Assembly: GCA_037444485.1 (NCBI GenBank)
Contig: JBBIMI010000014.1
Span: 1-21,139 of the forward strand
Reading direction: 5' to 3'
DNA length: 21,139 nt
Origin: Candidatus Micrarchaeota archaeon
GTDB lineage: Archaea > Micrarchaeota > Micrarchaeia > Norongarragalinales > Norongarragalinaceae
Part shown: piece after piece, positions 6,001-12,000 of the stretch
Position numbering within the stretch: the stretch's first letter is position 1
Layout of the letters: each line of letters starts with the position of its first letter
Made by a program: the position numbers

Positions 6001-9000
6001 GCGTAACTAACGCCGTAACGCATCATTTGTTGTTGTACGCCTTCGCAAGCGTCGACGAGGTAAACGCCTCCGTACTTTACTGCAAGGCACGCAGGCAGGT
6101 GCTTGGGGCTGGGAACAGAACCGCCTGTTCCCAAAACAATTACGCGAATCATTTTTGTTTGTTTTCACCAGTTTAAGAAAGTTCAATAAAATAATTTTTT
6201 TTGAAGAAACTGGATTTTAAAACAGTTTTAAAGCTTACGGCACGAAGCAGGATGACGCCGGCAAGCATTTCTTTAATCACGAACACGAATACGTGAATAA
6301 AACATAAATAAAAATAAAACATAAATAAAATTTCGGCGTTTATAAAACGTTCAGTCAACGCAACGCATGCAACGCTCGCGCAACGCAACCAACGCAACGC
6401 ATGCAACGCTTAGGCGACGAAGAGGAAAAAAGCATTTAATGAAAATTAATGAAGGAAATAAATATGAAGGCAATGAAGGAAATAATCGTTTACGAAAGCA
6501 ATGAAAGAAAAAGTGTTTAATAATTGTTTCTACATAAAAAAAGAATGGATGCGGGGAATGCAAATAAATCAGTAAATAAAATAAATCAGTAAATAAAAAA
6601 TTAATTTAATTCAATAAAAATTCAATAAATTCAATAAATTTTTCAGTTGAATTAACTGCTTTTTTTTAGTCAACTAGTTTTTTGTGTGAGAAGAGAATTC
6701 GTGTAAGAAAAAAATTGGAAAAAATTTGTGGTTAGAAGGGAATCTTAAAGTGGCTGGAAAGAAAAAAAAGAAAATCAAGGAAATCAAGGTCAAGAAATTC
6801 AAACCAACACCAGCAGCGTCAGCTGCAGCTCCAGCCGCAGCTCAAGCCGCAGCTTCGGCAGCGCCCGCTCCTACAACAACGCTTGCTGCAAGGCGTGCTG
6901 CAAAGCGTGCTACAAGGCGTGCTGCAGGGCAGGCGGCAGGGCGCGCACCAGCGCTTGCAGCGAAACAAGATTTAAGCAAAATCGAGTCTACAGCTGAAGT
7001 AGTCGTGAGTGACAAGCTCATTAACCAAATCATCGGCCAAGAAAAAGCGGTTGACATCATCAAGAAAGCCGCTTCACAGAAACGCAACGTACTCTTGGTT
7101 GGTTATCCTGGAACCGGAAAATCGCTTATTGCGCAAGCGATGAGCGAGTTGATGCCTGTCGAAGAACTCCAAGACGTCCTAGTTTACCCGAACCCCGTCG
7201 AGGAAAACAACCCGAAAATCGAGGTACTCAAAGCAGGCGAGGGACGCAAGCGCGTCGAGCAAGAACGTGCGCGCAAACAACTCGGCGCGTCAAACATTAG
7301 CCTTGTTTACGTCTTCTTTATTTTTATTGCCGCATTCTTTCTCTTGTCGTTCGGACGCTCGCAATTAGGTGACGTGATTACAGCAGCAATGCTTATAGGC
7401 TTGTTTGTAGTCGGCGGCGTAGTGTTGCTCGGCGCGCAGTTAATGCGCGGACGCTTCATGCAAGAAGCAGACGGGGTAAGGCTCTTAATAGACAATTCAG
7501 ACAAGAAAACAGCGCCCTTCGTTGAAGCAACAGGCGCGCGCGCAGGCGCGTTGCTCGGCGATTGCAGGCACGACCCGTTTCAAAGTTTTAAAGATGCTGG
7601 CGCCTTATTCTTCCAAAATAAGCATTCTAAAGGCTCTAAAAAGAAAAACAAATCTAAATATAGCTTTTTGAAGTTAGATTCTGTTTGGCGTAAATACGCT
7701 AAGAAATACCCCGAGTTGATTGAACGAAACTCCGACGGTTACCAGGCGATAGTACTGCCTAAAAGCGAGGAACTTTTCGTGCTCGGTTTGAAGAATGGGC
7801 AGGCAGTCGCGAGTCGGGTGTTAGTCATAAACCGCAGACCGTACGACGGCGAGATTGTGGAGGTCAGAGCGGGCGCAAGAAAACTCGAAACAACCCCAGA
7901 ACACGCATTCATAATCAAGAACCGCGACAAACCCGCGCGTAACGTCAAGAAAGGCGATGTTTTAAGCATTTTAAGAAAAACTGGTTTTTCCGCAGCCTGA
8001 TGCATCGTCACTTCATACCTTTTGTTCGAGAAAAAAAATTTTTCACCGGCATGGTGGCTGCCGCAAGTTTTTAAATCAATTTTTCGTCCTAATAAGTCAT
8101 GAACATCATCGATGTTGAAAGCTGTTTTGAAGACATTTTCAGTCGAAGAACAAGAGTCCGCGCAGCAGTATTTCGCTTATCAAAAGTTGAAGAATGAAAA
8201 TCCCGAACGGGGTTACAAACGGTTGGCGAAAGCGCTAGGCGTGAATAAAACTAAAACGCGCGCTTGGAAACAATGGAATTCAAAACCTATCGGCGTAAAA
8301 ACGGTTGAAGAACTGCAAAAAGCAGGCGTCCTGCCTTTTTGTTTTGAAGACGAGAAAGCACCGATAATTGCGAGAATTTTCGGCACTCTATACGGCGACG
8401 GCGGGGTTGACGCGAATTTGAACAACGTTTTCTTCGGTTCAGGCGACCTTGAAGACATCGAACTGTGGAAGCGGGATTTGCTGACTGTTTTTCCTTTTGC
8501 AGAGCGAAACTTGAGTTTGGTCAAGAGCGGAGAGTACGGCGACGGAAATTGCTTGCGTTGCACCAACAGGATGGTAATCCGATTTTTTGTTGCTTTGAAA
8601 GCGCCGTTAGGAAGCAAGATCATACGCGAATATCAGCTTCCAGAATGGGTTAAACAAGCGCCAAACGATTTGACCGCCTTTTTTCTAGACGGTTTTCTAG
8701 CTTGCGAGGTTGGCACTCCGCAGTTCTATCACGACCGCAGGAACAATTCCGAATACCTGTATAACTTCAGTTTCAACTTAAGCAAGTGGGAAGCGCTCGA
8801 AGAAAGTCACTTGCTTTTCTTGTACGACTTGAAGCGCTTGTGCTCCAAAATAGGGGTGAAAACCCATGCCAAGCCGCGCAAGGACGTTCATTTGAAGACC
8901 GAACGAAAAGACGGCAGGACGTCGTACTCGTACCGCGTTCACTTTTGCACTTCATTGGACAACGTGCTCTTGTTCGACTCTTTATTTCCGCTGACATACG

Positions 9001-12000
9001 CGAAAAAGAAAAAACAAAACCTAGCCCGAGAAATAATCAAGTCCGTAAGACACCACGAACTTCTGCAACGGCCAGTTAACGCCCTTACCGCCGGACGCTT
9101 TAACGCAATAATTAAATTCCATAAAACCAACATTAATACCGCGTGAAAAATAAATTTTCCGCCGACTGTTTCAAGCATCTGTTGGGCGTAACTAAAATGA
9201 AAAAAAGAGAAAAAAAATCGAAGCAGGAATTCAAGGTTGCAGGCGTTAAAGTTTCCCAAGTGGCAACCCGCAAGCACAAGGGCTGGGTTTACAACGTAAC
9301 TACGGAAACCGGCAACTTGTTCGCGAACGGCATTCTGGTTCACAACAGCGGGGGTCTTGGAACTCCCGCGTACTTGCGCATCGAGCCGGGCTTCGTGCAC
9401 AAAGCGAACAAAGGCGTTTTGTTTATCGACGAAGTCAGCACTCTCTCGCCCAAATCCCAGCAGGAACTGCTCACCGCAATGCAGGAAAAAAAGTACGCGA
9501 TTACGGGCCAAAGCGAGTTGTCAAGCGGCGCGATGGTGCGCAGCGACCCCGTTCCCTGCGACTTCGTCCTAGTCGCAGCCGGTAATTACAAGGACATTCA
9601 GCGCATGCACCCGGCGTTGCGCAACCGCATTCGCGGTTACGGTTACGAGGTTTACATGGAAGAATCAATGCCCGATTCGCCTGAAAACCGCTTGAAAATA
9701 ATTCAATTCATCGCCCAGGAAGTCAAGAAAGACGGAAAAATCCCGCACTTCGACCGCAGTGCGGTCGAAGAAGTAATCAAGGAAGCGAGAAAGCGTTCGG
9801 GAAGAAAAAACAAGCTCACGCTCAAACTCCGCGAACTCGGCGGCCTCGTCCGCGCAGCCGGCGACCTCGCCCGCGAGCGCGGCGCGAAGCTCGTCACGCG
9901 CGAGCACGTGCTTGCGGCGAAGAAACTCGCGCGCACGCTCGAACAACAGGTGGCTCAGCAGCTTATTGACGTGCGGAAGGATTACCAGATTTTCTTGACT
10001 AAAGGCGCGGCCGTCGGCAAAGTCAACGGCTTGGCCGTCATGGGCGATTCGGGTGTTATTATGCCCATCGTAGCGGAAGTCGCGCCTGCTGCTTCACGCG
10101 AAGAGGGGAAGATAATAGCAACCGGCAAGCTTGGTGAGATCGCGCGCGAAGCAGTCGAGAACGTCAGCGCGATAATCAAGCGACATACTGGAAAAGACAC
10201 TTCACGCTTCGATTTCCACATCCAATTTCTTCAAACCTACGAAGGTGGCGTAGAGGGAGACAGTGCAAGCATTTCGGTCGTAACCGCGGTAATCAGCGCG
10301 CTCGAAAACGTTCCAGTCTTACAAAACGTTGCGATGACTGGCTCGCTTTCGGTAAGAGGCGAGGTGCTTCCCGTAGGCGGAATCACACAAAAGATTGAAG
10401 CGGCAATTGATGCGGGGCTAGAGAGCGTGATCATCCCCTTCACGAACAAGGATGATGTAGTTCTTCCGTCAGAACAACAAAAAGTCATTAAAATCTTGCC
10501 TGCAAAAAACCTTGCAGACGTGCTTGAGTACGCTTTGAAAGAAAGCGCTAAAAAGCGAGAACTCATTTCGAAAATTCGGGCAGAAATCGCATAAGACAAA
10601 ATTCACCGGCAGCTACCTTACCTCAAGTTTTTAAACGCATTTCCAGTGAATACTTTGTCTATCGTGGTGTTTAATATGTCGAGAGCTGGCATCGAATGCT
10701 TGGATTTTGAATCTCTTTTCCCCAAAACTTGTTATTCCGGCTACCCTTTGCTTTTGCAGGCTCTTGACGATAAGTTGCTTGTCGAATTCCGCACGAAATA
10801 TCCCAATGGCAAAGACAAGTCTGAACGGTTCCAACCGCGTTCTGCTTTGCTTCCGCGCAGCATATGCTTGTCGAATGAATTAATTGAAATGCTAGGCGCG
10901 TATCAAGGCGATGGTCAGACTTCGACCGACTCCAAGAGCTATCAAGCCATTCGATTCGCAAATTCCTCTCCCGCGCTTGTAAAAACCTTTTTGAACTTCC
11001 TGCGCATTTTTGAAATAACTCCCAGCGAAGTTAAAGCTGAAGTAATCGCTTCAACAGCATTGCGCGAGCAAGAATCTGAAAAGTCATTGGCGGCATATTG
11101 GAGTAGCATAACTTGAATACCCCTCGAGAATTTTTACAAATGCCGCTGGAATCCAGCGAAGTATTCCAACTCGCATTGCGTTCCCCGCGGGGCGCTTGCT
11201 TTAATCTACGGAAATTCAAGCTTCCGCCTAGCGTTTGACGCGCTATTCAACGAAGTCAAAAAACGTGCTTTGCGTGATGCGCCATCACCGCCGCATTTTT
11301 ACGCGGTTGGATAGCTGCAGACGGTTGTTTTTACTACTCTGGCGCTTTACGTCAACTTATTCTTGCTGCTAAGGAGTCTGAAGATAGAACCTACGCACAT
11401 CAGCTATTTAAAAAGCTGGAAATTCAACCAAGCAAAGATGCTCTTCGCGCTGGAAAAGAAGCAGTCAATATAACCGGCTACACTAATATGAAAGTAATTG
11501 CGGATCTTAACCTCTGTCACTTGCACCCTGACAAACGACAAAAGTTTCAAACTGCTTTTCAAGCCTATCGGGGACCTTCATACCGCAAGGGAGAAGGCAA
11601 AAACCGAGTTAAGGAGTTGCTTGAAAACAACTCAAGAACAGTTACGCAACTCGCAAGTTTGCTCGAACGAAAGCCCAATGCAATCCGTGCACATTTGAGA
11701 GCTCTAGAGAAAGACGGAATCGTTTATCGTACAGAAACAATCCAAACAGCTAGAACTGGACGCTACGCTGAATGCTGGCGGCTTATTAATCCCGTAATTT
11801 AAGAAAAAGATTTGCAAAAGCGTTTTTAAACTAGTTCTCCGTTCTTTTTCTTGGTTGGTTTCATGCTGAAGTACTTCGCGTCCGTCGCAGGTCGGCAAAA
11901 ACGCGGCGAGGGGATTGCGTACCCTAAACCGAAAGGCAGGGACTTCGTGTGGGTCTACGCCAACGCGCTTTCGGTTGGAGAAGAAAAGCGTTTGAGCAAG

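Follow-up and report, generated by a model that had tools for sequence, protein, structure and literature searches.

The window, a stretch of 21,139 nt from the genome of a Candidatus Micrarchaeota archaeon (contig JBBIMI010000014.1), carries three consecutive ORFs on the same strand. They encode the N-terminal portion of the protease LonB joined to the N-terminal part of an intein (LonB-N and IntN), a LAGLIDADG endonuclease, and the intein's C-terminal portion joined to the remainder of LonB (IntC and LonB-C). The flanking genes are cellular housekeeping genes, such as those for ProRS, CTP synthase, and CorA. The features of the locus are as follows.

6726 or 6750 to 8000, + strand: ORF1, LonB-N and IntN (translation)
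6750 to 7583, + strand: LonB N-extein (translation; TIGR00764 match)
7584 to 8000, + strand: IntN, 138 aa (translation; alignment A3 of relatives)
8001 to 8111, + strand: spacer between ORF1 and ORF2, 111 nt
8112 to 9146, + strand: ORF2, free-standing endonuclease, 344 aa (open frame; fold)
9143 or 9197 to 10594, + strand: ORF3, IntC and LonB-C, in a frame other than that of ORF1 and ORF2
9197 to 9346, + strand: IntC, 50 aa from ATG 9197, or 68 aa from GTG 9143 (translation; alignment A4)
9347 to 10594, + strand: LonB C-extein, 415 aa and stop (TIGR00764; Pfam)

ORF1 ends with a TGA at 7998–8000, and the spacer holds a second TGA (8100–8102) in the frame shared by ORF1 and ORF2. The upstream start codon of ORF3, GTG 9143, overlaps the stop codon of ORF2 (GTGA). 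An initial annotation had described this three-ORF layout, with stop codons in the gap and the ORF2 stop lying over the ORF3 start; translation, the coordinates, and abutting matches to NCBIfam TIGR00764 bear it out. GTG 6750 is probably the start of ORF1 because the N-termini of relatives read MAKKK... or MARKA..., with TTG 6726 also possible in the open frame. ATG 9197 is the likely start of ORF3, since relatives start IntC at a Met 30–46 aa before the junction. An IntC of 50 aa is therefore more likely than the about 68 aa proposed in the initial annotation, whose IntN of about 138 aa, His-Asn end, and +1 Ser all stand. In the spacer, an A/T-rich TATA-like stretch, TTTTTAAAT (8068–8076), lies 36–44 nt upstream of the ORF2 ATG and might serve as a promoter for ORF2. 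Another TATA-like sequence, ATAAAT, is found at 9150–9155, 47 nt upstream of ATG 9197.

The N-extein contains a basic N-terminal tail, two hydrophobic membrane helices, and Walker A (GYPGTGKS), and ends in ...GDCRHDPFQ. The C-extein opens with SGGLGTP, followed by Walker B (VLFIDE), the AAA lid, and the Lon protease domain (GDSAS); in Pfam, it matches Lon_C (E 1.4e-31) and also LonB_AAA-LID. Residues 78–279 of ORF1 match positions 4–196 of the 608 positions of TIGR00764, the archaeal LonB equivalog (193.5 bits), and ORF3 matches positions 194–607 with 666 bits against a cut-off of 516.6. The two LonB pieces thus abut exactly, and jointly reach a full-length match. The gene is broken inside the AAA+ module, with Walker A and Walker B on either side and an intein of ~190 aa in the middle.

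IntN begins with Ser1 (7584–7586) in SFKDAG and has block B TTPEH; IntC ends in VHN, followed by Ser+1, with the junction after 9346. The class 1 intein (HINT) features, namely a nucleophile at position 1, TxxH, a terminal His-Asn, and Ser+1, are thus present in the window, and neither half contains a cysteine. In an alignment of 26 IntN sequences (A3), the T and H of block B are invariant and residue 1 is Ser in 23, Cys in two, and Thr in one. In the corresponding alignment of 26 IntC sequences (A4), YN.TT..GN, the terminal Asn, and the +1 Ser are invariant, and the penultimate residue is His in 20, Ser in three, Lys in two, and Arg in one. Block F of the usual intein consensus has Asp and His; these places are occupied by Asn and Gly here, and likewise in the contiguous relatives. 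IntC scores 24.8 bits against TIGR01443 intein_Cterm (cut-off 15.6), and matches to Pfam Intein_splicing (18.9 bits for IntN and 18.0 bits for the other half) lie below the curated cut-off of 35.8. Among solved inteins, the A3 profile matches those of MJ0781 (2jmz, E 2.1e-8) and V-ATPase (4o1s, 9e-4) and RecA mini-inteins; the A4 profile matches the NrdJ-1 intein C-terminus (E 0.0012) and, weakly, NEQ528 (E 0.1). IntN and IntC, 47–49% identical to the contiguous 161-aa mini-intein of a relative (G049), tile it end to end with no segment missing, and the split point corresponds to the usual endonuclease-insertion site.

The model of an IntN–IntC complex gave an ipSAE of 0.86, against 0.00 for the best of three controls, and so reproduced the 0.88 against 0.0 reported before, although solved split-intein complexes exist and this score may mirror likeness to them rather than binding of the window copy. 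Of 157 solved complexes, 116 reach the mark applied, as do 2 of 215 mismatched pairs; contacts agree between runs in at least 89%, and partner pLDDT is at least 78. IntN and IntC are predicted on this basis to associate. Such a complex suits association as well as splicing, and LonB could work as a non-covalent two-subunit enzyme in which splicing has been lost and the intein halves only hold the subunits together. A precedent, in the part of the report available (PMC3045599), is a ribonucleotide reductase in fragments that are brought together by interaction domains of mobile-element origin, and the penultimate His is replaced by Ser, Lys, or Arg in 6 of the 26 IntC sequences. However, Ser or Cys at position 1 is kept in 25 of the 26 IntN, and the T..H of block B, the terminal Asn, and the +1 Ser in all 26 sequences of the alignment concerned; these catalytic residues speak against a two-subunit LonB because association alone would not need them. 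The position of the break, which would leave the intein in the middle of the AAA+ module, also argues against it, and we regard this explanation as unlikely.

ORF2 is a two-motif LAGLIDADG homing endonuclease with an N-terminal helical domain. Its motifs, ...LYGDGG (D96) and ...FLACEV (E199), include acidic residues that are invariant in 12 sequences. An AlphaFold2 model (pLDDT 90.3, pTM 0.86) has the two helices with acidic residues and the alpha-beta-beta-alpha-beta-beta-alpha fold of this family, and Foldseek against the PDB retrieved I-Tsp061I (E 1.6e-7, probability 1.00), the TliVMA intein, I-DmoI, PI-SceI, and PI-PfuI. By sequence alone the assignment is weak: a Pfam search of ORF2 gave no match, and LAGLIDADG_3 matches three of seven relatives (best E 0.001). 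ORF2 does match the endonuclease part of the NCBIfam model for intein-containing RtcB (E 3e-21), and shares homology with the endonuclease domain that the contiguous LonB inteins of G036 (37% identity), G099, and G017 carry in frame. The dN/dS values of free-standing relatives, 0.065 and 0.108, point to strong purifying selection on the free-standing endonuclease.

The breaks between the ORFs could in principle be sequencing or assembly errors, the genome being a metagenome-type assembly that is fragmented into 58 contigs. Positions 6750–10594 are found in a single Logan contig of run X1 with no differences at a depth of ~23, an assembly that may derive from the same reads and is not independent DNA because X1 may be the source sample. 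This match excludes an artefact of the assembler, and many assemblies unrelated to this one contain breaks homologous to those seen here. Errors of this kind are hardly credible here. It could also be supposed that only dispersed relatives are split and that the window genome makes one cis-splicing precursor by reading through the two TGA codons and shifting frame near 9143. Only these two TGA codons separate ORF1 from ORF2, which share a frame, and the ORF2 stop overlaps the ORF3 GTG. Yet three recoding events would be required, the spacer exceeds the contiguous linker by ~40 codons and is not conserved with respect to it, and folding of the spacer RNA revealed no significant structure (z -1.23). 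TGA is a normal and frequent stop in this genome, ending 173 of 442 long frames, and read-through past TGA is no longer than past other stops. Furthermore, G016 and G046 have the same three-ORF layout in other frames. Production of a single precursor is thus very improbable. A separate possibility, that TGA is a sense codon and the breaks an artefact of recoding, was ruled out by the same stop statistics.

The initial annotation knew of only three relatives with a broken layout. A separate LonB-N and IntN ORF is in fact found in 27 of 68 genomes of the order, that of the window included, and stops 111–163 aa after HDPFQ; the matching C-half ORFs of relatives begin with Met and 30–50 aa of IntC. 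Contiguous forms are represented by G036, whose single ORF of 1190 aa includes the endonuclease, and by G049, whose ORF of 821 aa contains a mini-intein. G017 retains the endonuclease on the N-half, the three-gene fractured form occurs in the window, G046, and G061, and G054 keeps an endonuclease remnant. The halves are scattered in the whole family f10 and in G043, G002, and G004: in G043 they lie on opposite strands of one contig with ~90 kb between them, and in G002 and G004 the distance is ~22 and 29 kb. In G047, G008, G034, and G051, each half is deep within a different large contig, and in G016 both halves are flanked by unrelated genes. Read-through is therefore unable to rescue lonB genes whose halves are unlinked. 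Of 25 C-half genes, 15 have TATA-like hexamers at 20–55 nt upstream, compared with 5% of all 36-nt windows at the same loci, a crude control because coding sequence is included and the genomes are related.

Selection was estimated from 14 pairs of split lineages, with dN/dS of 0.05–0.14 for the exteins, 0.11–0.39 for IntN, and 0.05–0.30 for IntC; values are rough for many pairs because dS is near saturation, and several are saturated. In the best unsaturated pair (G020–G008), dN/dS is 0.05 for the N-extein, 0.22 for IntN, 0.05 for IntC, and 0.07 for the C-extein. These ratios indicate that the exteins and both intein halves, like the endonuclease, are under purifying selection. They bear on the refutation that the initial annotation had offered for its own proposal, that a decaying intein has inactivated lonB and left pseudogene fragments. 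Two stops and a frame change do interrupt what is a single ORF in G036, and two other Lon_C-like genes are present in the genome. Against this, whole clades conserve the layout, the same breaks recur in the 27 genomes with intact ORFs and low extein dN/dS, and extein branch lengths are not elevated, no long branches being seen in the extein tree. The two other genes have only weak Lon_C matches (37.9 and 32.5 bits), and queries with either half turned up no second LonB or LonB paralogue in the 95%-complete genome. Decay of lonB is very unlikely.

Conservation, selection, the retained catalytic residues, the tiling, and the predicted complex thus support the natural split intein with a separate endonuclease that the initial annotation had proposed. 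We consider it probable, at roughly 85%, that the locus is a functional fractured lonB gene with a working natural split intein and that LonB is made by trans-splicing, a reading built on sequence and structure prediction. What we infer in this reading is that each ORF is expressed, that splicing takes place, and that the endonuclease has its activity and target. Three proteins would be made: a LonB-N and IntN protein that the two N-extein helices would tether to the membrane, the LAGLIDADG endonuclease, and a soluble IntC and LonB-C protein. IntN and IntC would associate to form one HINT fold, in which Ser1 would perform an N-O acyl shift and the ester would be passed to Ser+1. Cyclization of the terminal Asn would then join the exteins into a full-length LonB of ~690 aa, in which the HDPFQ-SGGLGTP motif would again stand between Walker A and Walker B. 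The endonuclease would be the mobility gene of the element, presumably cutting intein-free lonB alleles at the insertion site. The only LonB protease found in this small archaeon is most probably joined from two pieces post-translationally, as in many relatives.

A further, tentative suggestion, which we hold with less than even confidence, is that IntN, endonuclease, and IntC form a mobile cassette that homes into intact lonB and may, in a single event, convert an essential gene made of one piece into a trans-spliced gene made of two. This is proposed because fractured and intein-free lonB alleles coexist in genera g23 and g26, because the intein tree conflicts with the extein tree (f10g24 is grouped with f1g9, SH-aLRT 96), and because of the strong purifying selection on the endonuclease. 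If true, one archaeal order would preserve every stage in the life of a split intein, from contiguous with endonuclease (G036) through an endonuclease on the N-half (G017), the fractured gene (window, G046, and G061), and the remnant (G054) to scattered halves, and would hold a large family, as yet undescribed, of natural split inteins that lack cysteine.

In the literature searched, no paper describing a lonB fractured by a split intein was found. Relative to the contiguous LonB inteins of G036 and G049, the window shares the insertion site (HDPFQ/SGG) and homologous splicing blocks, whereas stop and start signals stand on both sides of the endonuclease in place of a single cis-splicing ORF. 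The split inteins of cyanobacterial DnaE and the Nanoarchaeum equitans DNA polymerase have halves of ~100–140 and 30–50 aa, split at the endonuclease-insertion site, and those of DnaE show acidic/basic charge complementarity between the halves. N. equitans is counted among the DPANN. As in these systems, each extein half carries an intein half, and many relatives of the window are dispersed in exactly this way. Unlike them, the window has another host protein, Ser1 and Ser+1 with both halves cysteine-free, and halves that remain neighbours on either side of the endonuclease; no overall charge complementarity of the DnaE kind is evident because both halves are net basic (+16 for IntN and +8 for IntC). 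DnaE and the N. equitans polymerase are given as natural split inteins with unlinked halves in the available part of Dassa et al. (2009; PMC2677866), and since the broken polymerase is already treated there, the claim that a split intein is new in DPANN does not hold. The lack of a catalytic Cys is shared with cysteine-less split inteins for ligation, as described in the accessible portion of that report (PMC13014065), and the window IntN and IntC have no Cys at all.

The closest counterparts are the "fractured genes" of Dassa, London, Stoddard, Schueler-Furman, and Pietrokovski (2009; PMC2677866), which, in the available part of that paper, comprise 26 loci from marine metagenomes, judged mostly phage, with DNA synthesis and repair enzymes as hosts and GIY-YIG or Vsr-like endonucleases. 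The window likewise has a free-standing endonuclease gene between split-intein halves on the same strand, a short non-coding gap before it (111 nt compared with 27–51 nt), and an endonuclease stop overlapping a possible start of the downstream half. The stepwise model given there, from a fractured gene through endonuclease loss to dislocation of the halves, has all its steps present among relatives of the window, with the remnant in G054 and dispersed halves in G043, G002, and G004. In contrast to the loci covered there, the host here is a protease on a cellular archaeal chromosome, and the endonuclease is of the LAGLIDADG type, with homology to the domain that contiguous inteins at this site carry in frame. 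We treat the GIY-YIG or Vsr-like endonuclease and the phage context as features of that sample, not as defining the arrangement, and read the locus as a fractured gene of the same kind that differs in its cellular archaeal protease host and LAGLIDADG endonuclease.

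The lonB gene of the window is fractured, that is, its split-intein halves have a free-standing endonuclease gene between them (Dassa et al., 2009), and the natural split intein that it carries is conserved and almost certainly functional. The initial annotation had placed LonB in three consecutive ORFs of one strand, and this layout is confirmed by the translations, the coverage of a LonB model, the ordinary use of TGA and a contig from sequencing run X1. The features are as follows.

6726/6750-8000, + strand: ORF1, LonB N-terminal part, then the 138-aa intein N-part (IntN), then TGA at 7998
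Between ORF1 and ORF2, 111 nt: spacer, containing another TGA (8100) that is in frame with ORF1
8112-9146, + strand: ORF2, 344 codons, in the frame of ORF1
GTG 9143 or ATG 9197 to 10594, + strand: ORF3, in a frame different from that of ORF1 and ORF2

Walker A (GYPGTGKS) and a pair of hydrophobic helices lie in the LonB part of ORF1, whose last residues are ...GDCRHDPFQ at 7583; IntN comes next, starting with SFKDAG... and containing TTPEH. ORF3 encodes the intein C-part (IntC) and, after it, Walker B, the AAA lid and the Lon protease domain, and runs to 10594. Because ORF1 covers positions 4-196 and ORF3 positions 194-607 of the LonB equivalog model (NCBIfam, 608 positions), the two LonB pieces abut exactly. 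The GTG at 9143 shares bases with the stop codon of ORF2 (GTGA); the start of ORF3 was set at ATG 9197, since the C-half ORFs of relatives have their first Met 30-46 aa ahead of the extein junction. The start codons of ORF1 and ORF3 are both inferred from relatives. Of 25 C-half genes, 15 have a TATA-like hexamer 20-55 nt upstream, compared with 5% of all 36-nt windows at the same loci, a crude background that includes coding sequence and related genomes. No notable RNA hairpin was found in the 111-nt spacer (fold z -1.23); a hairpin upstream of the endonucleases is described for fractured genes by Dassa et al. (PMC2677866).

Recoding of TGA is ruled out, TGA being an ordinary stop codon in this genome: it terminates 173 of the 442 frames of at least 250 aa, and among these frames read-through beyond TGA is no longer than beyond TAA or TAG. 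An assembler artefact is excluded by a Logan contig of run X1, which contains 6750-10594 in one piece with 0 differences at a depth of ~23, X1 being perhaps the source sample and its DNA hence not independent. G+C is uneven (0.35-0.53) over window positions 1-3000, around a 208-aa ORF at 1231-1857 (- strand) with a DDE_Tnp_IS240 transposase domain (E 1.4e-6).

The two intein parts retain the residues expected for splicing. Among 26 sequences each, residue 1 of IntN is Ser in 23, Cys in 2 and Thr in 1, and the block B Thr and His are invariant, as are the terminal Asn of IntC and the +1 Ser; the penultimate His is present in 20. IntN and IntC together tile the contiguous mini-intein of a relative (G049) with no segment missing, and the break between them is at the usual insertion place of endonuclease domains. 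The family profiles match solved inteins; Pfam intein matches of the window itself fall below the cut-off. The predicted IntN-IntC complex scores ipSAE 0.86 versus 0.00 for the best of three controls, a mark attained by 116 out of 157 solved complexes but by just 2 out of 215 mismatched pairs. At least 89% of contacts are shared between runs, with partner pLDDT of at least 78. Because split-intein complexes have already been solved, this score would reflect likeness to them rather than prove that this copy binds.

Neither Pfam nor, for ORF2 alone, the PDB gave a hit by sequence, and a seven-sequence profile gave only chance-level PDB matches. The whole length of ORF2 does align with the endonuclease domain that contiguous LonB inteins carry in frame (G036, G099, G017), with D96-G97-G98 (LYGDGG) and E199 (FLACEV) invariant. 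An AlphaFold2 model from a 12-row alignment (pLDDT 90.3, pTM 0.86) was compared with the PDB by Foldseek, and the top matches were LAGLIDADG enzymes and intein endonucleases, namely I-Tsp061I (E 1.6e-7), the TliVMA intein, I-DmoI, PI-SceI and PI-PfuI. This alignment and above all these fold matches identify ORF2 as a LAGLIDADG homing endonuclease of the two-motif kind, to which a helical domain is added at the N-terminus. Only six other clusters of free-standing relatives of similar length are present in a large protein collection. Such relatives are under strong purifying selection, with dN/dS of 0.065 for G046-G061 (288 codons) and 0.108 for G016-G025 (147 codons). The latter pair belongs to genus g10, in which the endonuclease is linked to the N-half and the C-half lies elsewhere (G016: L005 on C7, L024 on C69; G025: L011, L025); selection persists there although the cassette is no longer able to home as one unit. 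Directly downstream of lonB-C, at 10646-11311 (+ strand), is a second LAGLIDADG-like ORF (...LGAYQGDGQ...) of 156 aa with 65 further codons beyond an in-frame TGA at 11114; Pfam LAGLIDADG_3 matches it weakly, with E 0.002-0.0035 and a score under the cut-off, and it may be a decayed second endonuclease gene.

In 68 genomes of the order, the N-half matched 64 (E <= 1e-20) and the C-half 62 (E <= 1e-80), and the frames were then read.

States of LonB in the 68 genomes
27 of 68 genomes, that of the window included: LonB-N plus IntN, with a stop 111-163 aa beyond HDPFQ
1 genome (G025): C-half and endonuclease found, N-half not found
4 genomes (G036, G049, G041, G056): uninterrupted gene whose intein occupies the same site
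1 genome (G017): N-extein, IntN and endonuclease in one ORF, IntC and C-extein in an overlapping second ORF
31 genomes, G014 among them: LonB without an intein, most frames spanning 620-720 aa and a few truncated by a stop or the end of a contig
1 genome (G045): state unclear
3 genomes: no LonB match

The one-piece forms include a 1190-aa protein with endonuclease (G036) and an 821-aa protein with a mini-intein (G049). Within the order, the split halves are adjacent on one contig only in the window, G046 and G054, and probably also in G061. They are ~22 kb apart in G002, ~29 kb in G004 and ~90 kb in G043, where they lie on opposite strands of one contig. In 18 genomes they are on different contigs, each half being deep inside a large contig in G047, G008, G034 and G051; in G016, unrelated genes follow the N-half and endonuclease, and others precede the C-half on another contig. 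G054 retains only an 80-aa endonuclease remnant (L070, C10:6388-7028), in which just the C-terminal ~60 aa of the frame survives between adjacent halves. The rest of the space is taken by an unrelated ORF of ~120 aa that is rich in Cys and hydrophobic at its N-terminus; the cassette is here at a stage of decay or replacement. The layout of G017 (L010/L026, C38) is an intermediate form, with LonB-N, IntN and endonuclease in one 706-aa frame and IntC (~37-41 aa) with LonB-C in the overlapping frame. Both halves occur twice in G046, as diverged copies: a set with an endonuclease on C47 (L006/L028), and a set closer to G061 on C28 (L056) and C41 (L029). Either the bin mixes two strains or the duplication is genuine.

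In the large protein collection, a near-length search with the IntN region retrieved 21 other clusters (20 of 288-397 aa, one of 727 aa) and a longer-length search two proteins only; proteins of 727 and 745 aa look like the G017 form. Where names are given, the short N-halves are "ATP-binding protein" or "hypothetical protein" of Candidatus Micrarchaeota, and such genomes may therefore be scored as lacking a complete LonB.

A quick IQ-TREE phylogeny of the C-extein (59 rows) follows taxonomy without long branches, and splitting extends to whole clades (every one of the 10 rows from family f10; genera g3 and g5, g1 and g10, and g9). The split is thus an old state, with no decay of LonB since it arose. 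Nei-Gojobori estimates for 14 pairs within split lineages, several of which yield no value owing to saturated dS, gave dN/dS of 0.05-0.14 for the two exteins together, 0.11-0.39 for IntN and 0.05-0.30 for IntC; in the best unsaturated pair (G020-G008) the values are 0.05 for the N-extein, 0.22 for IntN, 0.05 for IntC and 0.07 for the C-extein. With either half as query, no second LonB was found in this 95%-complete genome, and its two other Lon_C hits are weak.

Evolution may have run in either direction: escape of the endonuclease domain from a contiguous intein, or invasion of a mini-intein by a free endonuclease. A quick tree built from the intein parts (25 rows, only ~160 columns) groups the window intein weakly with the contiguous G049 mini-intein (SH-aLRT 88) and the inteins of f10g24 with f1g9 (96), whereas the f10g24 exteins group with the rest of f10 (99). 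This conflict is a hint of intein movement between lineages, whether it preceded or followed the split.

The three ORFs would yield three proteins. The N-half, anchored in the membrane, would contribute IntN and the soluble C-half IntC; the two would fold together, and Ser1, Ser+1 and the terminal Asn would perform standard class-1 splicing. In the resulting full-length LonB, the stretch from Walker A to Walker B would regain HDPFQ-SGGLGTP; neither LonB half alone contains a complete ATPase site. The endonuclease would be the mobility gene of the element. In this reduced archaeal genome, a membrane protease that is essential would then depend on protein trans-splicing.

Natural split inteins form a small group, and any further pair that is efficient and orthogonal is useful for protein ligation. 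The window pair has Ser at both nucleophile positions and cysteine in neither half, a property valued for oxidising conditions, and is of practical interest as a cysteine-free split intein. Both parts are basic (net charge +16 for IntN, +8 for IntC), which, like the Pfam scores below the cut-off, counts against the reading. In alignments A3 and A4 (26 loci each), most IntN are strongly basic (median +15.5; IntC median +3.5), and acidic IntN (-3 to -14) occur only in the g3/g5 clade. The DnaE split inteins have an acidic IntN and a basic IntC, a pattern unlike that observed here.

A split LonB intein is apparently undescribed in the literature searched: no description was found in open-access PubMed Central and bioRxiv, where subscription journals are largely absent. 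Pinto (2020; PMC7090010) contains no occurrence of Lon or LonB, PMC5498576 has inteins only within a list of missing functions, and the paper retrieved for split inteins in DPANN deals with MCM inteins. The proposal that this is the first split intein in DPANN does not hold, because the polymerase of Nanoarchaeum equitans is named, together with cyanobacterial DnaE, as having unlinked split-intein halves by Dassa et al. (PMC2677866). As that paper's account of fractured genes goes, the arrangement in the window is the same. However, the host gene is a protease rather than a gene of DNA metabolism, the endonuclease is of the LAGLIDADG type rather than GIY-YIG or Vsr-like, and, unlike the loci described there, the setting is a cellular archaeal chromosome with housekeeping-gene neighbours. 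The stepwise model in the same account is seen acted out within one archaeal order, whose members show, at one insertion site, every stage it proposes for split-intein origin, so that both phylogeny and bench work can test in what order these stages followed one another.
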